In this document: in pieces, positions 27,160 to 48,490 of the stretch
Numbering within the stretch: the first letter of the stretch is position 1
How the letters are laid out: every line of letters starts with the position of its first letter
DNA from: Lambdavirus PDP110P1
Reading direction: 5' to 3' (one strand)
Length of the DNA stretch: 48,490 bases
Sequence record: OZ035751.1
The notes under the pieces: model-generated
What the model was told of the DNA's origin: nothing
What the model saw: only the letters and a program-made list of their open reading frames with translations
Databases searched by the model: none
Made by a program: the position numbers and the translations under genes

Positions 27160-27420
27160 ACCTTGCGCTAATGCTCTGTTACAGGTCACTAATACCATCT
27201 AAGTGGTTGATTCATAGTGACTGGATATGTTGTGTTTTGTAGTATTATGCAGTCTATTATTTAGACTAAATCTTTCATAACATATTGATATTTACAGTGT
27301 TTTCTGTTTATTGTTCAGCTTTTTTATACTAAGTTGGCATTATAAAAAAGCATTGCTTATCAATTTGTTGCAACGAACAGGTCACTATCAGTCAAAATAA
27401 AATCATTATTTGATTTCAAT
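27160..27420. other. attP: attP (lambda-type; core 27318-27332)
   Basis: lambda core GCTTTTTTATACTAA with flanking lambda arm sequence (…ACAGGTCACTA…), adjacent to int. Confidence 0.85.
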
Positions 27421-28476
27421 TTTGTCCCACTCCCTGCCTCTGTCATCACGATACTGTGATGCCATGGTGTCCGACTTATGCCCGAGAAGATGTTGAGCAA
27501 ATTTATCGCTTATCTGCTTCTCATAGAGTCTTGCAGACAAACTGCGCAACTCGTGAAAGGTTGGCGGATCCCCTTCGAAGGAGAGACCTGATGCTTTTCG
27601 TGCGCGCATAAAATACCTTGATACTGTGCCGGATGAAAGCGGTTCACGACGAGTAGATGCAATTATGGTTTCTCCGCCAAGAATCTTTTTGCATTTATCA
27701 AGTGTTTCCTTCATTGATATCCCGAGAGCATCAACATGCAATGTTGTTGGGATAGCAATTTTTACGCCTGTTTTGCTTTGCTCGACATAAAGATATCCAT
27801 CTACGATATCAGACCACTTCATTTCGCATAAATCACCAACTCGCTGCCCGGTAACAACAGCCAGTTCCATTGCAAGTCTAAGCCAACATGGTGATGATTC
27901 TGCTGCTTGATAAATTTTCAGGTATTCGTCAGCCGTAAGTCTTGATCTCCTTACCTCTGATTTTGCAGCGCGAGTGGCTGCGACCGGGTTTGTTGTTATA
28001 TGGCCTTCAGCTATAGCCTCTCGGAATGCATCGCTCAGTGTTGATCTGATTAACTTGGCTGATGCCGCCTTGCCCTCGTCTATGTATCCATTGAGCATTG
28101 CCGCAATTTCTTTTGTGGTGATGTCTTCAAGTGGAGCATCAGGCAGACCCCTCCTTATTGCTTTAATTTTGCTCATGTAATTTATGAGTGTCTTCTGCTT
28201 GATTCCTCTGCTGGCCAGGATTTTTTCGTAGCGATCAAGCCATGAATGTAACGTAACGGAATTATCACTGTTGATTCTCGCTGTCAGAGGCTTGTGTTTG
28301 TGTCCTGAAAATAACTCAATGTTGGCCTGTATAGCTTCAGTGATTGCGATTCGCCTGTCTCGGCCTAATCCAAACTCTTTACCCGTCCTTGGGTCCCTGT
28401 AGCAGTAATATCCATTGTTTCTTATATAAAGGTTAGGTGGTAAATCCCGGCGCTCATGACTTCGCCTTCTTCCCAT
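27406..28476 (-). CDS. int: integrase (lambda Int, tyrosine recombinase)
   Basis: 356-aa protein MGRRRSHERRDLPPNLYIRNNGYYCYRDPRTGKEF…, recognised as lambda Int. Confidence 0.95.
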   Translation of the reverse strand: MGRRRSHERRDLPPNLYIRNNGYYCYRDPRTGKEFGLGRDRRIAITEAIQANIELFSGHKHKPLTARINSDNSVTLHSWLDRYEKILASRGIKQKTLINYMSKIKAIRRGLPDAPLEDITTKEIAAMLNGYIDEGKAASAKLIRSTLSDAFREAIAEGHITTNPVAATRAAKSEVRRSRLTADEYLKIYQAAESSPCWLRLAMELAVVTGQRVGDLCEMKWSDIVDGYLYVEQSKTGVKIAIPTTLHVDALGISMKETLDKCKKILGGETIIASTRREPLSSGTVSRYFMRARKASGLSFEGDPPTFHELRSLSARLYEKQISDKFAQHLLGHKSDTMASQYRDDRGREWDKIEIK

Positions 28477-28757: not shown

Positions 28758-29381
28758 TTAAAATTCGAATTGTCTCGCCCGAAGGCTTTTCAACATTGGT
28801 CTTGCCCGTTCGAAAACGGCGCTTGTCTGGTCAAGTCGTGTCGCCTCCCTGAGCAGTACATCTCTGTTTTTCGTCACCGCATAGAAGGTTTCAAACGCAA
28901 TGTCATACAGCTTACTCGCGTATGATGAGTTAAGTTCCTTCATTATCGGGTACAGGAGTTTGCAGATGTCCTGTGCATTCTCCATCTGTACCTGCATGTA
29001 GCAGAGGAGGATGATTTCCTCGTCTGTGAATTGCTGCGCTGGTTGCATGCTGCGAAGTTTCTTTTCGCACTCGATGAAGTATCGGCGTATCTGGCGGCCT
29101 TTTTCGTTGCGCTCCACCATAGCCAGTTCTTTGGCTGTATCGAGGGTGAGGTGGTAGTCCTTGCGGTTGTGACCGCCTCTACCAGATGTTTGCTTTCCCA
29201 AATTGGAAAGCAAAATATAGTCTTGATTTTCAATGAATTTGTATTCTGAAATGCGATTTGTAATCCATGCCGCAAACACCTTTTTCACGCCTAAAAAAGC
29301 ATGCAGATCGCGGGCATTGCAGAGTAGGGCTGTTTCGTTGGCGATAGTGCCGTTGAATACGGGGATGAGTTGACTGGTCAT
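28758..29381 (-). CDS. antirepressor-like protein (AntA/ORF6N-type N-terminal domain)
   Basis: 207 aa from ATG 29381 with RBS AAAGGAGG; N-terminal domain resembles the phage antirepressor/Bro-N family. Confidence 0.5.
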   Translation of the reverse strand: MTSQLIPVFNGTIANETALLCNARDLHAFLGVKKVFAAWITNRISEYKFIENQDYILLSNLGKQTSGRGGHNRKDYHLTLDTAKELAMVERNEKGRQIRRYFIECEKKLRSMQPAQQFTDEEIILLCYMQVQMENAQDICKLLYPIMKELNSSYASKLYDIAFETFYAVTKNRDVLLREATRLDQTSAVFERARPMLKSLRARQFEF

Positions 29382-29736
29382 GATGACCTCCTTTGAAGTT
29401 TTAGTTAGCAATCACCAGTTAGTGGCTGGTGATCGGGTGTCAACTAGAGCCTTCAAAGATGCTCCGGGCATATTCCCCTTGCGGGTATTGTATTACGCCT
29501 CTCCACCCGACCTTTGTACGGATGTGACTATGCCAAATTGCAGGCATAAAAAAGCCGCAAAGCTATCGGGTGCGGATGACCGCTTTGAAGTTCTAGTGCG
29601 GTCAGTATGCGATAGCTCTGGCGGATTTGTCAAATCATGTGGTCTTTATCTTGCTGTAAGCCGCGCCATTCGGGATTTTCCCCAAATTTGGGGGAAACTA
29701 TCTGCGAAGTATTCACCTTTGACGGCAAGTTTCAGG

Positions 29737-33029: not shown

Positions 33030-33518
33030 TTATTTGATAAGAAGTGAAGGTTTACCAACCTTGAGTTGAGCACCGGGAATATTTATTCCTGCTTTTAGTT
33101 GGTGCTTGATTGCCAACTTGTCGGCTTTAATTGTCGTTTCAAACTCAACGTAATCAGGAGGAAGGGCGCTTGAGTCGATGATTTCTACAGTTTCTGACGG
33201 TTTGCGGATTGTTACCTGGTGAATACCTGCTCTAATCTTTTTCTTGCCAACCATTTCAAGCGATGAGGCTATATATGACATAATGCTATCAATCTTATTT
33301 TGAATTACTGCGGCTCGTTCATTTAGTGACTTTGCCTCTTCCTTGAGGCGTTCAGCATAACCAGATTCATTTTTAATAATGGCAAGAAGTTGCTCTATTT
33401 TATCGGTAAATTCTCCTTCCATGCCTTCTATTGTGTCAGCAATCATCTCTGGCTCTAAATCTGAATCCATCAATTTTGCGTATTCATTGGCAATTTCATA
33501 TAGTTTGCTCACTGGCAA
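33030..33518 (-). CDS. Gp157-like protein (RecT-associated)
   Basis: 162 aa immediately upstream of RecT-like gene, the usual pairing. Confidence 0.45.
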   Translation of the reverse strand: MPVSKLYEIANEYAKLMDSDLEPEMIADTIEGMEGEFTDKIEQLLAIIKNESGYAERLKEEAKSLNERAAVIQNKIDSIMSYIASSLEMVGKKKIRAGIHQVTIRKPSETVEIIDSSALPPDYVEFETTIKADKLAIKHQLKAGINIPGAQLKVGKPSLLIK

Positions 33519-34407
33519 CCTCCAGTTTTGCTTTGCATTCTGCGTAAATGGCTTGTACGTTCTGCTGCAATTTCATTCCAGATGTCAGGCGATATGCTTC
33601 TGCAAAATATCGCTTCAAATCATCCATGTTTTCTGCCTGAGCCATTTCATCACAAAGAAGTTGAGCTTTTTCCATAATTTCCTGCTGGCGTTTCCGTTCA
33701 TCTTCGCGGATATCTTCCTCTGATTTGTGCGGCATAACTGGTTCAGTCCATACACCTTCTTCTTCGTTTAGTACGTGAATAGCACTATCAAGACGTGATG
33801 CCTTAGGCCAATACTTGCTTGCACGCTTTACGACCGTCTTTCGCGCCATCTCATTCCAGTGATTTACCCATGGTCCTTTATCGCTGAATGCCGCCTTGCT
33901 TGTTTTCCTTACAGCCTCAATTTCAGCCAGACTCATCTCTTCCGTTAGATAATCACCTGCTGGCGTCTTAACTGTGCAGTAAACGCCAACGATATCACCA
34001 CGATCACCGAAGGCGTTGTATTTATGGGTTGGTGCTTTATCAAGCCCGTTTGACTCATAGGTATCGTTAGCATGAACAAGTTTTGCCTGACCCCATGAGA
34101 TAACACCAGACTCCATTGCAATATGGAGCAATCCCATATAACTGATATCAAGGCACACCATGCCGTCGCGCGGAACCAGATAAGCCAGTTTGCTAGCCGG
34201 GTTTAAGGTGATGCCGATCGCCGCAACATTGATGATGGCGTTCTGTGCGCTGGTTGGATTTGCCAGTGCTGTTTTAGCCAGGTAATCATTTTTCTGGAAA
34301 TACTGAATTGCAAACTGGCTTTCCTTAGCCCATGTCACCGTCTGTTCAGTCAATGCTCCGCAGAATAACTGCTCTTGCTGTTTAACGAATTCAACGATAT
34401 TGCTCAT
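33496..34407 (-). CDS. recT: RecT-family single-strand annealing recombinase
   Basis: 303 aa; segment GPWVNHWNEMARKTVVKRASKYWP matches the conserved RecT region. Confidence 0.8.
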   Translation of the reverse strand: MSNIVEFVKQQEQLFCGALTEQTVTWAKESQFAIQYFQKNDYLAKTALANPTSAQNAIINVAAIGITLNPASKLAYLVPRDGMVCLDISYMGLLHIAMESGVISWGQAKLVHANDTYESNGLDKAPTHKYNAFGDRGDIVGVYCTVKTPAGDYLTEEMSLAEIEAVRKTSKAAFSDKGPWVNHWNEMARKTVVKRASKYWPKASRLDSAIHVLNEEEGVWTEPVMPHKSEEDIREDERKRQQEIMEKAQLLCDEMAQAENMDDLKRYFAEAYRLTSGMKLQQNVQAIYAECKAKLEVASEQTI

Positions 34408-35193: not shown

Positions 35194-35394
35194 TCAGGCA
35201 GCCTTGTTATTCTGTTTACCAATTTCTCTGGCAATCATTGCCGTCGTTCGTATTGCCCATTTATCGACATATTTCCCATCTTCCATTACAGGAAACATTT
35301 CTTCAGGCTTAACCATGCATTCCGATTGCAGCTTGCATCCATTGCATCGCTTGAATTGTCCACACCATTGATTCTTATCAATAGTCGTAGTCAT
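35194..35394 (-). CDS. ral: Ral-like restriction-alleviation protein (putative)
   Basis: 66 aa, four-Cys motif CGQFKRCNGCK…C; same size and position relative to N as lambda ral. Confidence 0.5.
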   Translation of the reverse strand: MTTTIDKNQWCGQFKRCNGCKLQSECMVKPEEMFPVMEDGKYVDKWAIRTTAMIAREIGKQNNKAA

Positions 35395-38081: not shown

Positions 38082-38726
38082 TTAACCAAACGTCTCTTCA
38101 GGCCACTGGCTGGCGATAACTTTCCCCACAACGGAACAACTCTCATTGCATGGGATCATTGGGTACTGTGGGTTTAGTGGTTGTAAAAACACCTGACCGC
38201 TATCCCTGATCAGTTTCTTGAAGGTAAACTCATCACCCCCAAGTCTGGCTATGCAGAAATCACCTGGCTCAACAGCCTGCTCAGGGTCAACCAGAATTAA
38301 CATCCCGTCAGGAAAACTAGGTTTGGATCCTGTTGGCGCGGTCATGGAATTACCTTCAACCTCAAGCCAGAAAGCTTTTTCGCTGGCTTTTGTGGTCGTT
38401 GGGACCCATGCCTTTGCATCGCTGGCTGTGTAGCTTCCCACCTCCGAAAATGGCCCGGCCTGCACTGAAGAAAATAACGGGTATTCATATTGGCGAAATA
38501 CGGCGTCTGAATCCTCGCCAAACATTATTTTTGCCGGAGATACGCCGAGTGCCGCCCCAAGAACCAGCGCGTCATCCGCGCTAACCTTTCTTGTTCCTAA
38601 CTCGTAGTTCCCCAGGCGTGAAGGCGCAGCCCAGCCGCAAAGCTTGGCCAATTGAGCCTGGCTAAGTCCTTTAGCTTCTCTAAGGGACTTGATCCTTTCC
38701 CCGATAATTTCATGCATCGTTTTCAT
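38082..38726 (-). CDS. cI: CI-type repressor (HTH plus LexA-like S24 peptidase domain)
   Basis: 214 aa; N-terminal HTH (…[24 protein letters not shown]…), C-terminal autocleavage domain; divergent from cro across operators. Confidence 0.85.
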
Positions 38727-38834
38727 CCCTTAAATGTAACACGCAACGTGATTGAACTCTGTACACGAATTGAGGTTGACTGTTAATCACAAATTGTGTG
38801 TAATGGGTGTGTGATTAATGCTAGGGAGACCGCA
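38727..38834. promoter_or_regulatory. OR operators with divergent pR/pRM
   Basis: pR candidate TTGACT-N17-TGTAAT (38776-38804); operator-like repeats AATCACAAATTGTGTGTAAT and GTGTGATTAAT. Confidence 0.6.
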
Positions 38835-39053
38835 ATGAACAAAATTGCCCAGCAGCGAAAAAAAATCGGAGTTTCGCAAGCTGTACTAGCTTCAGCAATT
38901 GGTTGGGGGCAATCCCGCATCGCCAACTATGAGCTGAATATCCGTACTCCTGGCCTTAACGATTGCCGAATGATCGTAGAAGGCCTCAGGAAGTTAGGGT
39001 GCCAATGTTCTTTGGATGATGTTTTCCCTCCATCCAGTAACAAAGCCGCCTAA
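38835..39053 (+). CDS. cro: Cro-like repressor
   Basis: 72 aa from ATG 38835 (RBS GGGAGA); HTH …IGVSQAVLASAIGWGQSRIANYEL…. Confidence 0.7.
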   Translation: MNKIAQQRKKIGVSQAVLASAIGWGQSRIANYELNIRTPGLNDCRMIVEGLRKLGCQCSLDDVFPPSSNKAA

Positions 39054-39060
39054 GCAGTAC

Positions 39061-39101
39061 CCGCTCTTTAACAGTCATGGCCTTTCACCTCTAACCGGGT
39101 G
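39061..39101 (+). promoter_or_regulatory. nutR (boxA and boxB)
   Basis: boxA CGCTCTTTAA, then hairpin TCACC-TCTAACCG-GGTGA; loop shares CTAACC with nutL. Confidence 0.6.
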
Positions 39102-39170
39102 AGCAAACATCAGCGGCAAATCCATTGGGTGTGCCGCTATAACTCAATATCAATATAGGAAAATTAACAA

Positions 39171-39467
39171 ATGGCACAAGCAAGCTACAGCAAGCCAACA
39201 CAGCGAGAAATTGATCGCGCTGAAACTGATTTACTCATCAACCTGTCAACGCTTACCCAGCGCGGTCTGGCAAAGATGATTGGCTGTCATGAATCGAAGA
39301 TAAGCAGAACGGACTGGAGATTTATTGCTTCGGTCTTGTGTGCTTTCGGAATGGCATCAGACATCAGTCCGATTAGCAGGGCTTTTAAGTATGCGCTTGA
39401 TGGACTCACCAATAAAAAACGCCCGGCGGCAACCGAGCGTTCTGAACAAATCCAGATGGAATTCTGA
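39171..39467 (+). CDS. cII: CII transcriptional activator
   Basis: 98 aa; C-terminus …LTNKKRPAATERSEQIQMEF matches lambda CII, N-terminal two-thirds divergent. Confidence 0.8.
   Translation: MAQASYSKPTQREIDRAETDLLINLSTLTQRGLAKMIGCHESKISRTDWRFIASVLCAFGMASDISPISRAFKYALDGLTNKKRPAATERSEQIQMEF
39412..39440 (-). terminator. oop-type terminator antisense to the cII 3' end
   Basis: on - strand a GC-rich hairpin followed by TTTTTTATT, at the position of the lambda oop terminator. Confidence 0.45.
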
Positions 39468-39499
39468 GGTCATTACTGGATCAATCCACAGGAGTCATT

Positions 39500-40399
39500 A
39501 TGACAAATACAGCAAAAATACTCAACTTCTGCAGAGGTAACTTTGCCAAACAGGAGCGTAATGTGGCAGATCTCGATGATGGTTACGCCAGACTATCAAA
39601 TATGCTGCTTGAGGCTTATTCAGGCGCAGATCTGACCAAGCGACAGTTTAAAGTGCTGCTTGCCATTCTGCGTAAAACCTATGGGTGGAATAAACCAATG
39701 GACAGAATCACCGATTCTCAACTTAGCGAGATTACAAAGTTACCCGTCAAACGGTGCAATGAAGCCAAGTTAGAACTCGTCAGAATGAATATTATCAAGC
39801 AGCAATGCGGCATGTTTGGACCAAATAAAAACATCTCAGAATGGTGCATCCCTCAAAACGAGGGAAAATCCCTTAAAACGAGGGATAAAACATCCCTCAA
39901 ATTGGGGGATTGCTATCCCTCAAAACAGGGGGACACAAAAGACACTATTACAAAAGAAAAAAGAAAAGATTATTCGTCAGAGAATTCTGGCAAATCCTCT
40001 GACCAGCCAGAAAACGACCTTTCTGTGGTGAAACCGGATGCTGCAATTCAGAGCGGCAGCAAGTGGGGGACAGCAGAAGACCTGACCGCCGCAGAGTGGA
40101 TGTTTGACATGGTGAAGACTATCGCACCATCAGCCAGAAAACCGAATTTTGCTGGGTGGGCTAACGATATCCGCCTGATGCGTGAACGTGACGGACGTAA
40201 CCACCGCGACATGTGCGTGCTGTTCCGCTGGGCATGCCAGGACAACTTCTGGTCCGGTAACGTGCTTAGCCCGGCCAAACTCCGCGACAAGTGGACCCAA
40301 CTCGAAATCAACCGTAACAAGCAACAGGCTGGCGTGACAGCAGGAAAATCAAAACTCGACCTGACAAACACTGACTGGATTTACGGGGTGGATTTATGA
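39500..40399 (+). CDS. O: replication initiator O
   Basis: 299 aa MTNTAKILNF…, recognised as lambda O; contains the ori iterons. Confidence 0.95.
   Translation: MTNTAKILNFCRGNFAKQERNVADLDDGYARLSNMLLEAYSGADLTKRQFKVLLAILRKTYGWNKPMDRITDSQLSEITKLPVKRCNEAKLELVRMNIIKQQCGMFGPNKNISEWCIPQNEGKSLKTRDKTSLKLGDCYPSKQGDTKDTITKEKRKDYSSENSGKSSDQPENDLSVVKPDAAIQSGSKWGTAEDLTAAEWMFDMVKTIAPSARKPNFAGWANDIRLMRERDGRNHRDMCVLFRWACQDNFWSGNVLSPAKLRDKWTQLEINRNKQQAGVTAGKSKLDLTNTDWIYGVDL
39846..39980 (+). repeat. lambda-type origin: iterons plus AT-rich region
   Basis: four direct repeats of the TCCCTCAAAACGAGGGA type followed by an A/T-rich stretch, inside O. Confidence 0.85.
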
Positions 40400-41097
40400 A
40401 AAACATCGCCGCACAGATGGTTAACTTTGACCGTGAGCAGATGCGCCGGATCGCCAACAACATGCCGGAACAGTACGACGAAAAGCCGCAGGTACAGCAG
40501 GTAGCGCAGATCATCAATGGTGTGTTCAGCCAGTTACTGGCAACTTTCCCGGCGAGCCTGGCTAACCGGGACCAGAACGAACTGAACGAAATCCGCCGCC
40601 AGTGGGTGCTGGCTTTCCGGGAAAACGGGATCACCACAATGGAACAGGTTAACGCAGGAATGCGCGTAGCCCGTCGGCAGAATCGACCATTTCTGCCATC
40701 ACCCGGGCAGTTTGTTGCATGGTGCCGGGAAGAAGCATCCGTTATCGCCGGACTGCCAAACGTCAGCGAGCTGGTTGATATGGTTTACGAGTATTGCCGG
40801 AAGCGAGGCCTGTATCCGGATGCGGAGTCTTATCCGTGGAAATCAAACGCGCACTACTGGCTGGTTACCAACCTGTATCAGAACATGCGGGCCAATGCGC
40901 TTACTGATGCGGAATTACGCCGTAAGGCCGCAGATGAGCTTGTCCATATGACTGCGAGAATTAACCGTGGTGAGGCGATCCCTGAACCAGTAAAACAACT
41001 TCCTGTCATGGGCGGTAGACCTCTAAATCGTGCACAGGCTCTGGCGAAGATCGCAGAAATCAAAGCTAAGTTCGGACTGAAAGGAGCAAGTGTATGA
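40396..41097 (+). CDS. P: replication protein P (helicase loader)
   Basis: 233 aa MKNIAAQMVNFDREQMRRIANNMPEQ…, recognised as lambda P. Confidence 0.95.
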   Translation: MKNIAAQMVNFDREQMRRIANNMPEQYDEKPQVQQVAQIINGVFSQLLATFPASLANRDQNELNEIRRQWVLAFRENGITTMEQVNAGMRVARRQNRPFLPSPGQFVAWCREEASVIAGLPNVSELVDMVYEYCRKRGLYPDAESYPWKSNAHYWLVTNLYQNMRANALTDAELRRKAADELVHMTARINRGEAIPEPVKQLPVMGGRPLNRAQALAKIAEIKAKFGLKGASV

Positions 41098-41384
41098 CGG
41101 GCAAAGAGGCAATTATTCATTACCTGGGGACGCATAATAGCTTCTGTGCGCCGGACGTTGCCGCGCTAACAGGCGCAACAGTAACCAGCATAAATCAGGC
41201 CGCGGCTAAAATGGCACGGGCAGGTCTTCTGGTTATCGAAGGTAAGGTCTGGCGAACGGTGTATTACCGGTTTGCTACCAGGGAAGAACGGGAAGGAAAG
41301 ATGAGCACGAACCTGGTTTTTAAGGAGTGTCGCCAGAGTGCCGCGATGAAACGGGTATTGGCGGTATATGGAGTTAAAAGATGA
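41094..41384 (+). CDS. ren: Ren
   Basis: 96 aa MTGKEAIIHYLGTHNSFCAPDVAALTG…, recognised as lambda Ren. Confidence 0.85.
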   Translation: MTGKEAIIHYLGTHNSFCAPDVAALTGATVTSINQAAAKMARAGLLVIEGKVWRTVYYRFATREEREGKMSTNLVFKECRQSAAMKRVLAVYGVKR

Positions 41385-41457
41385 CCATCTACATTACTGA
41401 GCTAATAACAGGCCTGCTGGTAATCGCAGGCCTTTTTATTTGGGGGAGAGGGAAGTC

Positions 41458-41898
41458 ATGAAAAAACTAACCTTTGAAATTCGATCTCCAGCACATCAGC
41501 AAAACGCTATTCACGCAGTACAGCAAATCCTTCCAGACCCAACCAAACCAATCGTAGTAACCATTCAGGAACGCAACCGCAGCTTAGACCAAAACAGGAA
41601 GCTATGGGCCTGCTTAGGTGACGTCTCTCGTCAGGTTGAATGGCATGGTCGCTGGCTGGATGCAGAAAGCTGGAAGTGTGTGTTTACCGCAGCATTAAAG
41701 CAGCAGGACGTTGTTCCTAACCTTGCCGGGAATGGCTTTGTGGTAATAGGCCAGTCAACCAGCAGGATGCGTGTAGGCGAATTTGCGGAGCTATTAGAGC
41801 TTATACAGGCATTCGGTACAGAGCGTGGCGTTAAGTGGTCAGACGAAGCGAGACTGGCTCTGGAGTGGAAAGCGAGATGGGGAGATCGGGCTGCATGA
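41458..41898 (+). CDS. ninB: NinB
   Basis: 146 aa from MKKLTFEIRSPAHQQNAIHAVQQ…. Confidence 0.85.
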   Translation: MKKLTFEIRSPAHQQNAIHAVQQILPDPTKPIVVTIQERNRSLDQNRKLWACLGDVSRQVEWHGRWLDAESWKCVFTAALKQQDVVPNLAGNGFVVIGQSTSRMRVGEFAELLELIQAFGTERGVKWSDEARLALEWKARWGDRAA

Positions 41899-42422
41899 CT
41901 ATCAAATCAAATACGCCAGCACACGACAAGGACTGCTGGCAAACGCCGCTTTGGCTTTTTGATGCACTGGATATTGAGTTTGGATTCTGGCTGGATTCGG
42001 CAGCGAGCGACAAAAATGCTCTGTGTGCTCACTGGCTAACTGAGGCCGACGACGCGCTCAATTCTGAGTGGGTAAGCCACGGTGCAATCTGGAATAACCC
42101 ACCGTACAGCAATATCAGGCCGTGGGTGGAAAAAGCCGCTGAGCAGTGCATACAACAGCGACAGACGGTAGTTATGCTTGTGCCAGAGGATATGTCAGTC
42201 GGATGGTTCAGCAAGGCTCTGGAGAGTGTCGACGAAGTTCGCATTATCACTGATGGACGGATTAATTTTATCGAACCATCGACAGGGCTGGAGAAGAAGG
42301 GAAACAGCAAAGGCTCCATGCTGCTGATTTGGCGACCGTTCATCAGTCCTCGACGGATGTTTACTACCGTATCCAAAGCGGCATTGATGGCGAACGGGCA
42401 GGGCGTCAGGAGGTACGAATGA
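41895..42422 (+). CDS. phage DNA N6-adenine methyltransferase (Dam-type)
   Basis: 175 aa from ATG 41895; NPPYS motif; ATGA overlap with ninB; sits where lambda carries ninC. Confidence 0.65.
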
Positions 42423-42595
42423 GACGACAGCGACGAAGTATCACCGACATCATCTGCGAAAACTGCAAATACCTTCCAACGAAACGCTCCAGAAATAAAC
42501 GCAAGCCAATCCCAAAAGAATCTGACGTAAAAACCTTCAATTACACGGCTCACCTGTGGGATATCCGGTGGCTAAGACATCGTGCGAGGAAATGA
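42419..42595 (+). CDS. ninE: NinE
   Basis: 58 aa [30 protein letters not shown]…. Confidence 0.7.
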
Positions 42596-42999
42596 CAATG
42601 CTTTTAATTCAACCTGGATTTGGCCTTAGCATCAAAAAAGGGCACATGTTTGGCGAGAAAGAATCTCAACGAAAAATGGTGTCGATACAGTTGCCATTTA
42701 TCAGTATTTATTGGCTAAACAGGGAGGCAACAAATTATTGGTATACATGCGCCAGAGCAGCATTTAACGACCCTGACTGGTTTGTGAAAAACCACCACGC
42801 AGTTCGTCAGGCAAAGAGAAAGGCCAATACGACATACATGAAGGCGTATCGAAAAGCATGGAAAGAACACTGCGATCGATACCAGCAAGATATGGAAAAG
42901 CTTGAATCAGAAAACATGGAATTAAGACGAAAGCTTGGTGAAGCAAAACGAGACATTGATGCTTACAAGCGACTTTTTAATGGTGAAAGCCATGCTTAG
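42556..42999 (+). CDS. hypothetical protein (nin-region insert)
   Basis: 147-aa ORF between ninE and ninF; C-terminal coiled-coil; start uncertain. Confidence 0.4.
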
Positions 43000-43168
43000 T
43001 CCATCCCAATCTCTTCAATACCAGAAAGAAAGCGTCGAGCGGGCTTTAACGTGCGCTAACTGCGGTCAGAAGCTGCATGTGCTGGAAGTTCACGTGTGTG
43101 AGCACTGCTGCGCAGAACTGATGAGCGATCCGAATAGCTCAATGCACGAGGAAGAAGATTATGGCTAA
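42992..43168 (+). CDS. ninF: NinF
   Basis: 58 aa [29 protein letters not shown]…. Confidence 0.75.
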
Positions 43169-43766
43169 ACCAGCGCGAAGGAAATGCAAAATATGCAAGG
43201 AATGGTTTCACCCGGCATTCTCAAATCAGTGGTGGTGCTGCCCGGAACACGGAACTCAGTTAGCACTCAAACTACAAAGTAAACAGCGAAAAAAAGCGGA
43301 AAAAGCAGCAGAGAAGAAACGACGACGAGAGGAGCAGAAACAGAAAGATAAACTTAAGATTCGAAAACTCGCCTTAAAACCCCGCAGTTACTGGATTAAA
43401 CAAGCCCAACAAGCCGTAAACGCCTTCATCAGAGAAAGAGACCGCGACTTACCATGTATCTCGTGCGGAACGCTCACGTCTGCTCAGTGGGATGCCGGGC
43501 ATTACCGGACAACTGCTGCGGCACCTCAACTCCGATTTGATGAACGCAATATTCACAAGCAATGCGTGGTGTGCAACCAGCACAAAAGCGGAAATCTCGT
43601 TCCGTATCGCGTCGAACTGATTAACCGCATCGGGCAGGAAGCAGTAGACGAAATCGAATCAAACCATAGCCGCCATCGCTGGACTGTCGAAGAGTGCAAG
43701 GCGATCAAGGCAGAGTACCAACAGAAACTCAAAGACCTGCGAAATAGCAGAAGTGAGGCCGCATGA
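43161..43766 (+). CDS. ninG: NinG (Rap) recombination endonuclease
   Basis: 201 aa; Cys-rich [18 protein letters not shown]…; lambda nin order. Confidence 0.85.
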
Positions 43767-43969
43767 CGTTCTCAGTAAAAACCATTCCAGACATGCTCGT
43801 TGAAGCATACGGAAACCAGACAGAAGTAGCACGCAGACTGAAATGTAGTCGCTGTACGGTCAGAAAATACGTTGATGATAAAGATGGGAAAATGCACGCC
43901 ATCGTCAACGACGTTCTCATGGTTCATCGCGGATGGAGTGAAAGAGATGCGCTATTACGAAAAAATTGA
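43763..43969 (+). CDS. ninH: NinH
   Basis: 68 aa [32 protein letters not shown]…. Confidence 0.8.
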
Positions 43970-44618
43970 TGGCAGCAAATACCGAAATATTTGGGTAGTT
44001 GGCGATCTGCACGGATGCTACACGAAACTGATGAAAAAACTGGAGACGATAGGATTCGACACCAAAAAAGACCTGCTTATCTCGGTTGGCGATTTGGTTG
44101 ATCGCGGTACAGAGAACGTCGAATGCCTGGAATTAATCACATTCCCCTTTTTCAGAGCTGTACGTGGAAACCATGAGCAAATGATGATTGATGGCTTATC
44201 AGAGCGTGGAAACGTCAATCACTGGCTGTTTAATGGCGGTGGCTGGTTCTTTAATCTCGATTACGACAAAGAAATTCTGGCTAAAGCTCTTGCCCATAAA
44301 GCAGATGAACTTCCGTTAATCATTGAACTGGTGAGTAAAGGTAAAAAATATGTCATCTGCCACGCCGATTATCCTTGTGACGAATACGAATTTGGAAAGC
44401 CAGTTGATTATCAGCAGGTAATCTGGAACCGCGAACGAATCAGCAACTCACAAGACGGGGTCGTGAAAGAAATCAAAGGCGCGGACACGTTCATCTTTGG
44501 TCATACGCCAGCAGTGAAACCACTCAAATTTGCCAACCAGATGTATATCGATACTGGGGCAGTGTTCTGCGGAAATCTCACATTGATTCAGGTACAGGGA
44601 GAAGGCGCATGGGAATAA
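43947..44618 (+). CDS. ninI: Ser/Thr protein phosphatase (NinI)
   Basis: 223 aa from MRYYEKIDG; calcineurin-like motifs GDLHG, GDLVDRG, GNHE. Confidence 0.85.
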
Positions 44619-45127
44619 GAGAATTAAACCTCACCAAAGAGCAGCACGAGTGGCTGAATGGCTGGCTTGAACTGTGGGGGGCATGGGTTTATTCAGGTCG
44701 TCTGGAAAAGCGCATGAGCAGCGTAATAGCTAAGTTCATGGAGAGCGTAGAGCCGGGAAGAGTTATGACAAGGCCAATGTGTAATGATGATGATGGAATG
44801 TTGATTTCTCAGGTCGTCGATTCCGTCATGTACATTGACAAGAAAGCCTTTGGCATCCTCCTCAGCTACTACGCTCATGGTTCATCTAAGCGAGCAATTG
44901 CATCCTACTATCACGCGACTGCAAAGCCACGCAAGATGTGTGGACGTGGTGGCGAGGGATGGAGAAAACCTTCACTGGCAACCTGTAGAAACGAAATTGA
45001 CGACATCCTGAAAGCGTCGTTATTTGTTTTGTACCAACCAATGCAAAATGCTTTCAAAATGCGTAAACGTGTTGAGAAAGTTAAGCATGTTGCTGTTAAA
45101 AGCCTTGACATGCAATTAGCCATTTAG
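44609..45127 (+). CDS. late antiterminator Q-like protein (non-lambda type)
   Basis: 172 aa, unlike lambda Q; sits between ninI and the lysis genes; Cys-rich; a strong promoter lies in its 3' end followed by an early terminator. Confidence 0.5.
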
Positions 45128-45134
45128 CCATAAT
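45105..45134 (+). promoter_or_regulatory. late promoter pR'-like
   Basis: TTGACA-N18-CATAAT overlapping the end of the Q-like gene. Confidence 0.6.
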
Positions 45135-45146
45135 TAGAAGGTAAGC

Positions 45147-45190
45147 TGCCGTTAGTGACTCTTAAGTTGCAACGGTGGCTTTTTTATTTG
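45147..45190 (+). terminator. early late-operon terminator (tR'-like)
   Basis: hairpin GCCGTT…AACGGTGGC followed by TTTTTTATTT about 10-50 nt downstream of the predicted start. Confidence 0.5.
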
Positions 45191-45262
45191 CACAACAGGT
45201 AAGAGCATTGAACCCGCAGACCTGCGGAATTGGTGAAAGGTGCCGCGCAGTTCTCTTATCGT

Positions 45263-45392
45263 TGTGGTGAAGCTCAATGGCGAGCTAGCAGATAGGCGAT
45301 AGTGAAAATACTAGTCATGTAGCTGACCGCCGCGCGTACTGCAATCGGCAGCGCACCGATGGAAGCCGGTTCGATTCCGGCCGCCACAACCC
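45263..45392 (+). other. tRNA-like element (split or degenerate)
   Basis: 5' acceptor TGTGGTG plus D-arm GCTC…GAGC (45263-45286) and T-arm GCCGG-TTCGATT-CCGGC plus 3' acceptor CGCCACA (45365-45388), separated by ~55 nt of non-canonical sequence. Confidence 0.3.
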
Positions 45393-45634
45393 AAACTGAG
45401 CCGTAGCCACTGGCTATCCTGAATTCATCAGTGATAGTTATGCTGCGGCCTTCTACACATGACCTTCGTGAAAGCGGGTAGCAAGATGCTGCGCTAACAA
45501 CCTCATGCCGTTTTGCCCGTGCATATCGGTCACGAACAAATCTGATTACTAAACACAGTAGCCTGGATTTGTTCTATCAGTAATCGACCTTATTCCTAAT
45601 TAAATAGAGCAAATCCCCTTATTGGGGCTAAGAC

Positions 45635-45958
45635 ATGAAGATGCCAGAAAAACATGACCTGTTAGCCGCCATTCTCGCGGCAAAGGAACAAGGCATCGGG
45701 GCAATCCTTGCGTTTGCAATGGCGTACCTTCGCGGCAGATATAATGGCGGTGCGTTTACAAAAACAGTAATCGACGCAACGATGTGCGCCATTATCGCCT
45801 GGTTCATTCGTGACCTTCTCGACTTCGCCGGACTAAGTAGCAATCTCGCTTATATAACGAGCGTGTTCATCGGCTACATCGGTACTGACTCGATTGGTTC
45901 GCTTATCAAACGCTTCGCTGCTAAAAAAGCCGGAATAGAAGATGGTGGAAATCAATAA
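45635..45958 (+). CDS. S: holin S
   Basis: 107 aa [22 protein letters not shown]… with Met1-Lys2-Met3 dual start; recognised as lambda S. Confidence 0.9.
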
Positions 45959-46418
45959 TCAACGTAAGGCGTTCCTCGATATGCTGGCGTGGTCAGAGGG
46001 AACTGATAACGGACGTCAGAAAACCAGAAATCATGGTTATGACGTCATTGTTGGCGGAGAGCTATTCACTGATTACTCCGATCACCCTCGCAAACTTGTC
46101 ACGCTAAACCCCAAACTCAAATCAACAGCCGCCGGACGCTACCAGCTTCTTTCCCGTTGGTGGGATGCATACCGCAAGCAGCTTGGCCTGAAAGACTTCT
46201 CTCCGAAAAGCCAGGACGCAGTGGCACTGCAACAGATTAAAGAGCGTGGCGCTTTACCGATGATTGACCGCGGTGATATTCGTCAGGCAATCGACCGTTG
46301 CAGCAATATCTGGGCTTCACTGCCGGGCGCTGGTTATGGCCAGTTCGAGCATAAGGCTGACAACCTGATTGCAAAATTCAAAGAGGCTGGCGGAACGGTC
46401 AGAGAGATTGAGGTATGA
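45942..46418 (+). CDS. R: endolysin R (lytic transglycosylase)
   Basis: 158 aa [26 protein letters not shown]…; recognised as lambda R. Confidence 0.9.
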
Positions 46419-46882
46419 GCAGAGTAACCGCGATTATCTCAGCTCTGGTTATCTGCATCATCGTTTGCCTGTCATGGGCTGTTAATCATTACCGTGATAA
46501 CGCCATCGCCTACAAAGAGCAGCGCGATAACAAGGCCAGTGAACTGGAGAAGGTGAACGCCACCATTACTGACATGCAGCAGCGCCAGCGTGATGCTGAT
46601 GCACTCGATGCTAAATACACGAAGGAGTTAGCCGATGCAAAAGCTGAAAATGATGCTCTGCAGCGCAAGCTTGATAATGGTGGTCGGGTGCTCGTCAAAG
46701 GCAAGTGTCCAGTGTCAGCCGCAACCCAAACCACCGGCGCCGCCAGCATGGGCGATGATGCCACCGTCGAACTCTCTGCAGTTGCTGGACGAAACGTTCT
46801 TGGTATCCGATCCGGAATCGTCAGCGACCAAACAGCCCTGAGAGCGCTGCAGGAATACATCACCACGCAGTGTTTGAAATAA
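46415..46882 (+). CDS. Rz: spanin inner-membrane subunit Rz
   Basis: 155 aa; N-terminal TM helix then coiled-coil; lambda Rz-like. Confidence 0.85.
46635..46841 (+). CDS. Rz1: spanin outer-membrane lipoprotein Rz1 (embedded in Rz, +1 frame)
   Basis: 68-aa ORF inside Rz; lipobox VVG-C; Pro-rich; RBS GAAGGAG. Confidence 0.7.
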
Positions 46883-46940
46883 GGCATTCATTGAATGCCT
46901 GTGATAATGTTTCCCCATGTACTAATCAAGCGGGAAAAAA

Positions 46941-47180
46941 ATGAATCAGGTCATTCTCATTCTTGAAGGGCAAAAGCCTCAGTCAATCAATGTCGCTGAT
47001 GGTATTAAATCAGTCAGGCATCTTCTTTCTGATGGACGTGAGGTGTGCATAGATATCATGACTGCTATCGTCAGGACTTCACACGGTGGGGAAGAGTCAT
47101 ACCTTGTCGCAACGGATATTGATGATATTTCTCCGCGAGAAATACAGCTCGCGGCGGAGTTATTGTTTCCCCGTACTTAA
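46941..47180 (+). CDS. hypothetical protein
   Basis: 79-aa ORF after the lysis cassette, followed by a weak terminator hairpin. Confidence 0.45.
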   Translation: MNQVILILEGQKPQSINVADGIKSVRHLLSDGREVCIDIMTAIVRTSHGGEESYLVATDIDDISPREIQLAAELLFPRT

Positions 47181-47202
47181 TTTTGACTCTTCGAAGCCAT
47201 CA

Positions 47203-47228
47203 CAAAGGCCACCCACGGGTGGCTTTCC
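47203..47228 (+). terminator. putative terminator hairpin
   Basis: GCCACC-CACG-GGTGGC followed by TTTCC; T-tract is weak. Confidence 0.4.
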
Positions 47229-47852
47229 TATGTTTAGTTCTGCAGACACACCGATCCCCGGAATGGAGGTTCCGTTCACGTGGCAGGCTAGCCTGGAGTT
47301 AAACGCGAAGCTTTACTCTGCGCTGGGGCAGTGCAATCTGGATAAGGCGGGGATTAGAAAGGTAGAGGAAGAACGCCGTAGTACTTTGCAATGATGCTGC
47401 AGATTAGGATGACGATGGCATTAATTGCCGGGGCAAACGGTGCCAATGTATTTAGTACTTCTAACATGTATACCTCCTTGGTTGTGAATGGTTGTCAGCG
47501 CTTCTCTTGTGTAACTTATTCCTCCTGTGGCTGTTCCTACTCGTTTAACATTAAAGGCCTTGAACGGTTATTTTTCGTTCTATACTCGCCACTATTGAGT
47601 GTCCAACGTGTTGGACAAGCCCTTCCTAATAGTGAGTCTTAATAGCTTCTGAGCAGTCTTTGTCTCTTATAAGAGACAAGCACATCCATGCCGGCAGACA
47701 AAGGTAGGTACCGAAAGAGGCGTTCAATAATTTTATAAAGTTCTGCAAATGATGCCTTTTTGTATCATTGACAGAGTTTTATGTGAGTTTACGGGTGCTG
47801 CGGTGTCGAAATTACCGAAATGGCATCAAAGCAACCCAGAGGATTATTCTGT

Positions 47853-48488
47853 ATGGCTGGAAATGACAATCGCAGACCATACCCTCCCGTCAACTTCACT
47901 GGCGAAAACTGGCTGCCTTATACCCGGCTGATCCCTGCTGCCGAAATCGGCGAATGGGTAAATCAGAACATCCTCTCCGAAGATGGCCGAATCCATAACC
48001 CTGACCATGCGCACTTGCTCGATGCTGATGTCGCGTTCATGTGGGCCTCTGGCTCATTCGCCAAAAGCGGCCGCATTGTGCTGGGCCAGTGTGAGCAGGT
48101 AATGATGCGCGCCGGTGGCTGGCAGAAAGCCAGAATGGAGCAGCAGATGCATGAATGGTTCGGACGCATACCGAAGTTCATCATCACCCTGGCTGCTGAC
48201 TACTGCGAGCAATGCAACGATCTGGAGTTCTGCGCACTGGTAGAGCATGAGCTTTACCACATCGCCCAGGCTACCGATGACTATGGCGCGCCGAAATTCA
48301 ACAAAGAGACCGGTATGCCGGTGCTCAAACTTCGCGGCCACGACGTCGAGGAATTCGTCGGAGTTGTCCGGCGTTACGGCGCCAGCAAAGACGTGCAGGA
48401 AATGGTGGATGCGGCGAACAGGCCGGCGGAGGTTGCTCATATCGATGTTGCCAGAGCGTGTGGGACGTGCATGCTGAAACTGGCTTAA
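47853..48488 (+). CDS. HExxH-motif protein (putative metallopeptidase) upstream of the packaging genes
   Basis: ~211 aa from ATG 47853 (RBS GAGGA); motif HELYH; track ORF starts at 47820. Confidence 0.45.
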   Translation: MAGNDNRRPYPPVNFTGENWLPYTRLIPAAEIGEWVNQNILSEDGRIHNPDHAHLLDADVAFMWASGSFAKSGRIVLGQCEQVMMRAGGWQKARMEQQMHEWFGRIPKFIITLAADYCEQCNDLEFCALVEHELYHIAQATDDYGAPKFNKETGMPVLKLRGHDVEEFVGVVRRYGASKDVQEMVDAANRPAEVAHIDVARACGTCMLKLA

Positions 48489-48490
48489 TA

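Follow-up and report, generated by a model that had tools for sequence, protein, structure and literature searches.

The 48,490-nucleotide record OZ035751.1 of Lambdavirus PDP110P1, which was analysed over its full length and is called the window in the following, carries a 175-codon gene at 41895–42422 (plus strand) between ninB and ninE. This gene very probably encodes an orphan enzyme, a small N6-adenine DNA methyltransferase belonging to the HP1/T1/VT2 'Dam' family of phages, which is carried in an ordinary nin-region cassette and would complete the GATC methylation of the phage DNA. As a prediction from the protein sequence, the activity, S-adenosylmethionine (SAM)-dependent N6-methylation of DNA adenine, can be regarded as settled, while the predicted target is most probably GATC.

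The methyltransferase and its family

The open reading frame (ORF) is intact according to the sequence itself and the list of ORFs, and its product runs from MTIKSNTP to VRRYE. Its ATG (41895–41897) overlaps the TGA of ninB (41896–41898) in an ATGA, a second ATGA is formed where its own TGA (42420–42422) overlaps the ATG of ninE (42419–42421), and NPPYS is encoded by nucleotides 42096–42110 as residues 68–72. The initial annotation of this stretch had described a methyltransferase of 175 residues with an NPPYS motif and an ATGA coupling to ninB at exactly this place, all of which is seen in the sequence. We kept ATG 41895 as the start, since the Enterobacterales homologues begin at the equivalent methionine and a GGGAGA is located 9 nt 5' of this ATG, and dropped the alternative upstream GTG start at 41835 that would give a protein of 195 residues. 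The gene and its two diagnostic segments are as follows.

41895–42422, plus strand: predicted N-6-adenine DNA methyltransferase of the HP1/T1/VT2 'Dam' family (PF05869 and TIGR01712 profiles; identity to the VT2-Sakai, 933W and HP1 proteins)
41985–42005, plus strand: FWLDSAA codons, residues F31–A37, motif I-like, at the end of predicted strand beta1 (alignments; predicted strand E31–34)
42096–42110, plus strand: NPPYS codons, residues 68–72, putative catalytic motif IV, after predicted strand beta4 (invariance; predicted strand E64–67)

The sole Pfam match of the protein is PF05869, 'DNA N-6-adenine-methyltransferase (Dam)', with E=4.7e-65 over residues 4–169, a score of 218.8 bits against a cut-off of 28.1, and profile positions 1–167 of 169 covered. 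The NCBIfam equivalog TIGR01712, 'phage_N6A_met', is matched with 264.4 bits against a cut-off of 97.05 over positions 1–165 of 165, and PHROG 111, 'DNA methyltransferase', with E=1.4e-86. The profile check against the phage Dam family was thus passed over the full profile length for PF05869 and TIGR01712, and the earlier proposal of an adenine methyltransferase of this family is upheld, its catalytic NPPY being present and conserved on alignment. All 264 relatives retrieved from a large protein collection carry PF05869, and those that have a name are called 'phage N-6-adenine-methyltransferase'; the sources of the 264 include Escherichia, Pectobacterium, Edwardsiella, Providencia, Yersinia, Serratia and Photorhabdus. 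The Pfam search gave no match to the MT-A70 profile, the motif being NPPY and not DPPW, nor to the alpha-class E. coli/T4 Dam family (PF02086). As no profile match to the latter family exists, the protein is a 'Dam' by specificity only: the term 'Dam-type' used in the initial annotation holds for the reported GATC specificity, but not for membership in the E. coli/T4 family.

For the analysis of motifs, 39 of the 264 relatives were aligned, which resulted in 44 invariant columns, and all 44 invariant positions are present in the window protein. They include T17-P18 in the N-terminal W-x-T-P motif, L33, D34 and A36 in the L-D-x-A-A segment, N68–S72, K139/G140 and I145–P148 (I-W-R-P), while W15, A37 and the K-G-S ... 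I-W-R-P block are nearly invariant. In an alignment of the window, VT2, HP1 and T1-type proteins, W15, T17, P18, L33, D34 and A37 are identical throughout, and NPPYS is conserved in the HP1 and T1-type enzymes as well. By analogy to other class I methyltransferases, the segment F31–A37 is likely to participate in SAM binding.

No solved structure of the family was detectable in a sequence-based search. A model built with AlphaFold on the 39-sequence alignment, with a mean predicted local distance difference test value (pLDDT) of 87.7 and a predicted template modelling score (pTM) of 0.86, displays the strand-helix pattern of a class I methyltransferase, in which D34 ends the first strand (31–34) and NPPY directly follows strand 64–67. 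The stretch between these two strands is short and mainly loop, with no extra domain. The predicted fold is that of a class I SAM methyltransferase consisting of one domain, a separate target-recognition domain (TRD) being absent; motif I precedes motif IV, as it does in the gamma class, and the fold would correspond to an N6-adenine (amino) methyltransferase. Among solved structures, CAPAM/PCIF1, which forms m6Am at the mRNA cap, is nearest to the model and ranks ahead of bacterial DNA methyltransferases; M.TaqI, M.BseCI and type I HsdM, all N6-adenine methyltransferases, are further close relatives. The CAPAM/PCIF1 domain and M.TaqI share 14–17% identity with the window protein and differ from it in having 380–490 residues with extra substrate-binding domains, the substrate of CAPAM being capped RNA.

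The gene has close counterparts in Shiga toxin (Stx)-converting phages. Orf32 of VT2-Sakai ('similar to DNA methylase', 175 residues) is identical to the window protein in 172 of 173 aligned residues, the window copy differing by I167N and in the last two residues, and it is located like the window gene between ninB and ninE homologues with an overlapping start. ST933Wp34 of 933W, likewise 175 residues long and annotated as 'similar to methylases of bacteriophage HP1 and T1', follows NinB directly, also with an overlapping start, and shows identity in 171 of 173 residues. The surroundings differ further downstream, where the window has dam followed by ninE and then by a conserved hypothetical gene, orf135, in combination with lambda O, P and ren, whereas VT2-Sakai and 933W have other downstream neighbours (ant/roi or a P63C-domain gene). 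The citing passages of PMC6602927, PMC7139368 and PMC7556043 credit Radlinska and Bujnicki (2001) with the cloning of M.EcoVT2Dam, a GATC-specific enzyme. M.EcoVT2Dam is probably the product of orf32, because orf32 is the sole methylase-like ORF annotated in the VT2-Sakai record.

More distant members of the PF05869 family are the Dam of Haemophilus phage HP1 (orf13), with 38% identity to the window protein (E=1e-32), and the T1-type Dam of Shigella phage Shfl1 (p62), with 32% identity. Both are single-domain proteins that have W-x-T-P, L-D-x-x-A and NPPYS in common with the window protein, and GATC methylation is attributed to the HP1 and T1 enzymes (PMC7556043, PMC7139368). They differ in belonging to other phage types and genome positions, and the T1-type enzyme furthermore features an N-terminal extension of about 45 residues and a 14-residue insertion. 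Compared to the alpha-class enzymes E. coli Dam, T4 Dam and DpnM (MethyltransfD12), the window protein is about 100 residues shorter, lacks the DNA-recognition domain and, unlike them, shows a gamma-like motif order with motif I before motif IV and no TRD between the two. The reported GATC specificity common to the window family and E. coli/T4 Dam is convergent, and convergent specificity has been stated for other phage/host methyltransferase pairs (PMC7556043).

Two further enzymes were considered as possible identities and ruled out. M.EcoPA8orf6770P, the rRNA-directed MT-A70 holoenzyme of Stx phages PA2/PA8 described by Gong et al., prefers 16S rRNA although it is annotated as a DNA adenine methyltransferase (PMC10810198); it requires a partner protein, carries DPPW and is encoded at locus gp5, so that the window protein differs from it in family, motif and locus. 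M.EcoGIX (SAY, single-strand specific) is plasmid-borne and unrelated to the locus.

The nin-region cassette and its predicted expression

A BLAST comparison of window positions 39001–46500 with lambda 38500–46500 gave the following segments.

39405–41898, equivalent to lambda 38591–41084: 98.7% identity; end of cII, O, P, ren and ninB, stopping exactly at the ninB stop
42426–42592, equivalent to lambda 42097–42263: 97% identity; ninE
43026–44614, equivalent to lambda 42297–43891: 95.3% identity; ninF to ninI
44615–45179: no lambda homology; different Q
45385–46500, equivalent to lambda 44936–46051: 96.4% identity; lysis genes (S, R)

Because lambda homology stops at the ninB stop codon and restarts 7 nt into ninE, the cassette at 41899–42425 (527 bp) stands in the slot of lambda ninC and ninD (lambda 41085–42096, 1012 bp) and replaces both. 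The methyltransferase gene had been described earlier as inserted into an otherwise lambda-like nin region; it is a cassette in this region, but one that was substituted for ninC and ninD and is not a pure insertion. Lambda ninC, which is PAPS-reductase-like (PAPS, 3'-phosphoadenosine-5'-phosphosulfate), and ninD lie between ninB and ninE as well and likewise use overlapping start and stop codons, whereas their sequence and function are unrelated to the methyltransferase. The homology breakpoints fall on gene boundaries, in agreement with the module exchange that had been proposed, and replacement of ninC and ninD by recombination at gene boundaries is ordinary nin-region mosaicism. According to PMC8022706, which refers to Kroger and Hobom (1982) and Cheng et al. 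(1995), nin regions typically show both ATGA overlaps and breakpoints at gene boundaries. In the window, four-base ATGA overlaps are found at P/ren, ninB/dam, dam/ninE, ninE/orf135 and ninG/ninH. The surrounding features are listed below.

41410–41443, plus strand: intrinsic terminator between ren and ninB, an 8-bp GC-rich stem followed by TTTTATTTGG (terminator scan)
41458–41898, plus strand: ninB (Orf recombination mediator), 146 residues (PF05772, E=2e-54)
42419–42595, plus strand: ninE, 58 residues (PF05322, E=7e-44)
42992–43168, plus strand: ninF (PF05810; lambda homology from 43026)
43161–43766, plus strand: ninG (Rap) (PF05766, E=9e-90; in the 95.3% lambda-identical block)
43763–43969, plus strand: ninH (PF06322, E=1e-43)
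43947–44618, plus strand: ninI (Ser/Thr phosphatase) (PF00149, Metallophos; start set by the position of MRYYEK; lambda block ends at 44614)
44609–45127, plus strand: Q-type late antiterminator, not lambda Q, 172 residues, end of the delayed-early operon (PF06530, E=1e-25, and DUF1133)

The region follows the lambda-type order ren-ninB ... ninE-ninF-ninG-ninH-ninI-Q between the replication genes and pR', and each gene from ren to Q is either assigned or a conserved phage hypothetical. NinB, NinE, NinF, NinG and NinH pass their Pfam cut-offs, NinI is recognised as Metallophos, and the flanking DNA is 95–99% identical to lambda, as the initial annotation had claimed for the Nin proteins. Its description of the methyltransferase as an orphan also stands, as the neighbours are ninB and ninE, and no restriction-modification endonuclease is annotated anywhere in the closely related, nearly identical prophage of E. 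coli 20KM2222.

The strong terminator between ren and ninB, composed of a hairpin at 41410–41433 and a T-run, is located inside the 98.7% lambda-identical block and is presumably the counterpart of lambda tR2. Established lambda biology predicts that a gene located past such a terminator is silent in the lysogen and is read from pR only with antitermination. Since a tR2-like terminator is present upstream, transcription of the nin genes from pR, that of the methyltransferase included, would depend on antitermination. The promoter scan detected no promoter-like site on the plus strand between the terminator and 44765, while a pR'-like promoter that agrees with 11 of 12 consensus positions is located at 45105–45134, after Q and overlapping its 3' end. 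The methyltransferase would hence be transcribed only in the lytic cycle, together with the other delayed-early genes of the pR operon and at the time of genome replication, and the ATGA overlaps suggest that its translation may be coupled to that of ninB and ninE.

Possible roles of the phage enzyme

The window contains 164 GATC sites, with a mean of 3.4 per kb. It is worth mentioning that the segment 32001–34000, which belongs to the recombination-gene region and covers RecT-family and Gp157 genes, contains none; prophage stretches devoid of GATC are also noted in PMC6602927. In lambda and P22, host Dam leaves the virion DNA under-methylated, 'possibly because replication outstrips modification' (PMC8022706). 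The phage enzyme would top up the GATC methylation that host Dam leaves partial on fast-replicating phage DNA, and progeny DNA would therefore be fully G(m6A)TC-modified whatever the host Dam level. We tentatively suggest, at somewhat less than even chances, that the main benefit of this modification is protection from nucleases cutting unmethylated GATC together with independence from dam-poor hosts. An anti-restriction benefit in lambdoid phages, which the initial annotation had stated outright by calling this a defence-evasion gene, is plausible, and PMC4101878 ascribes protection of GATC sites to orphan Dam enzymes from other phages. The window also encodes a homologue of lambda Ral, which serves type I restriction alleviation, at 35197–35394 (minus strand) with 98.5% identity over all 66 residues, showing that the phage does invest in restriction alleviation.

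Several points weigh against this reading. As regards anti-restriction in particular, the usual E. coli hosts already Dam-methylate GATC. The observed-to-expected ratio of GATC is 0.70 for the window and 0.59 for VT2-Sakai compared to 0.55 for lambda, so that the carriers are not separated from lambda and the comparison says nothing about function. The closest solved fold to the model is that of an RNA methyltransferase, and the annotation of a single methylase-like ORF in the VT2-Sakai record is the sole ground for equating M.EcoVT2Dam with orf32. Furthermore, the function of phage Dam enzymes has been called not well understood (PMC7556043), and the literature searched yielded no study addressing what the nin-region Dam of lambdoid phages does.

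Rather less likely than restriction evasion, but still to be reckoned with, is that the same GATC enzyme was selected for the control of phage or host physiology. Full methylation could keep SeqA from binding, and MutH from nicking, replicating DNA that is hemi- or unmethylated, or it could tune Dam-sensitive promoters and the balance of lysis and lysogeny or of induction. Such a role fits the unchanged GATC depletion in carriers and a host that is already Dam-positive, in which protection from restriction is partial at best. According to a title cited in PMC4101878, host Dam is needed for stable lysogeny of 933W, a phage carrying the same gene, and another prophage methyltransferase, from Stx phages, alters spontaneous induction (PMC10810198). 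On the other hand, the gene is located in the non-essential nin region, where lambda has the unrelated ninC and ninD without obvious regulatory consequence. Cases in which the main benefit comprises both or neither of restriction evasion and physiology take up what these two roles leave over. We consider it doubtful that the main selected role is the control of phage development or of the host machinery that reads GATC (SeqA, MutH, Dam-sensitive promoters, spontaneous induction) in place of restriction evasion and, as a separate point, that the TRD-less enzyme, with no solved structure in its family and the RNA-cap enzyme CAPAM as its closest solved fold, would read GATC by an undescribed mechanism.

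The remaining alternatives concern the activity itself. A relaxed or different specificity giving broad protection from many restriction systems might be imagined for an enzyme whose model lacks a recognisable target-recognition domain, and non-specific prophage adenine methyltransferases do exist (PMC7556043), M.EcoGI and M.EcoGII being listed as non-specific (PMC6602927). These described enzymes, however, belong to other families, and relaxed specificity is not reported for the present one. Citations of the VT2 enzyme, which is 99% identical, give its specificity as GATC (PMC6602927, PMC7139368, PMC7556043), and single-molecule real-time (SMRT) sequencing of strains carrying two additional copies revealed no added N6-methyladenine (m6A) motif, although lysogens may not express the gene (PMC6602927), which together make broad specificity quite improbable. 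By analogy with the Stx-prophage MT-A70 enzyme and the CAPAM fold, the protein might in fact methylate RNA, its annotation as a DNA enzyme being wrong. A mis-annotated prophage 'DNA adenine methyltransferase' offers a precedent for this reading (PMC10810198), and CAPAM/PCIF1 as the top structural matches would agree with it; we regard it as very improbable. Equally slight is the chance that the gene is a decaying passenger, inactive in the window phage, as might be suspected from the dispensable nin region and from the unique I167N exchange and the altered last two residues of the window copy. These changes are confined to the C-terminal tail, where conservation is poor, the gene has a conserved start and is kept at at least 95% in more than 1500 genomes, and it is the intact frame together with the complete conservation of all 44 family-invariant positions that renders decay unlikely.

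The second cassette, the phage genome and distribution

A second cassette spans 42593–43025 between ninE and ninF, as delimited by BLAST against lambda, and contains the following gene.

42592–42999, plus strand: orf135, conserved hypothetical, 135 residues (PHROG 1511, E=2.9e-85)

The initial annotation had listed a 147-residue insert at 42556–42999. The ORF between ninE and ninF is real, but its most likely start is ATG 42592, giving 135 residues, as PHROG 1511 aligns to residues 3–135 and the coding sequence of HK629 is annotated with 408 nt; this start also creates an ATGA overlap with ninE. No Pfam family is matched by orf135 above the cut-off, and weak coiled-coil/bZIP-like matches are seen in the C-terminal half only. 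The gene occurs in 57 phage records, including HK629, HK630, mEpX2, VT1-Sakai and H-19B. In HK629 it is found without dam (ninB-ninE-orf-ninF) and in Salmonella phage SE10 it adjoins ninC, while VT2-Sakai carries dam without orf135. As each gene occurs without the other in these phages, the two cassettes are independent, and orf135 was ruled out as a partner of the methyltransferase.

The window (1–48490) represents a complete lambdoid phage genome in cos order. Positions 1–27336 and 45588–48490 are 99.99–100% identical to the prophage of E. coli 20KM2222, which sits at the lambda attachment site, with ybhB and ybhC on either side, and in which the window end is joined to the window start. The exact lambda att core GCTTTTTTATACTAA occurs once in the window, as attP core at 27318–27332, next to int at 27406–28476 (minus strand). 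An AntA/P22-type antirepressor gene at 28758–29411 (minus strand) adjoins int/xis, and a RecT-family annealing protein and a Gp157-family gene are encoded at 33030–34407 (minus strand) in place of the lambda exo-bet pair. The virion-structure half (1–23000), which encodes baseplate J/gp47, a baseplate hub, DUF3383 and similar proteins, is not lambda-like but 91–96% identical to the Klebsiella prophages/phages ST15-VIM1phi2.1, KP12 and RCIP0114. Such a Klebsiella-like structural half joined to a lambda-like early region is striking, yet typical of phage mosaics.

At thresholds of at least 95% nucleotide identity and at least 80% coverage, the 528-bp dam gene was detected in 1539 of 5426 complete E. 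coli genomes (about 28%), in up to five copies. The protein is carried at at least 95% identity by 243 phage records, mostly of Stx-converting and other lambdoid phages, and any relative of it by 1889 records in all. The contiguous arrangement ninB-dam-ninE-orf135-ninF is found in 59 complete E. coli genomes as well as in phages such as Louie, E212 and ECP1. Wide conservation of the gene in 1539 genomes and 243 phage records argues for a function.

The feature is already known, since the gene and its slot have been annotated since 933W and VT2-Sakai, a precedent missed by the initial annotation, and the specificity was reported in 2001. It therefore carries little weight as a discovery, being a long-annotated and common gene whose VT2 enzyme is treated in the literature as cloned and GATC-specific. 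Its residual value lies in the role that very common phage Dam enzymes play in Dam-positive hosts, and in a TRD-less enzyme family without a detectable solved structure.

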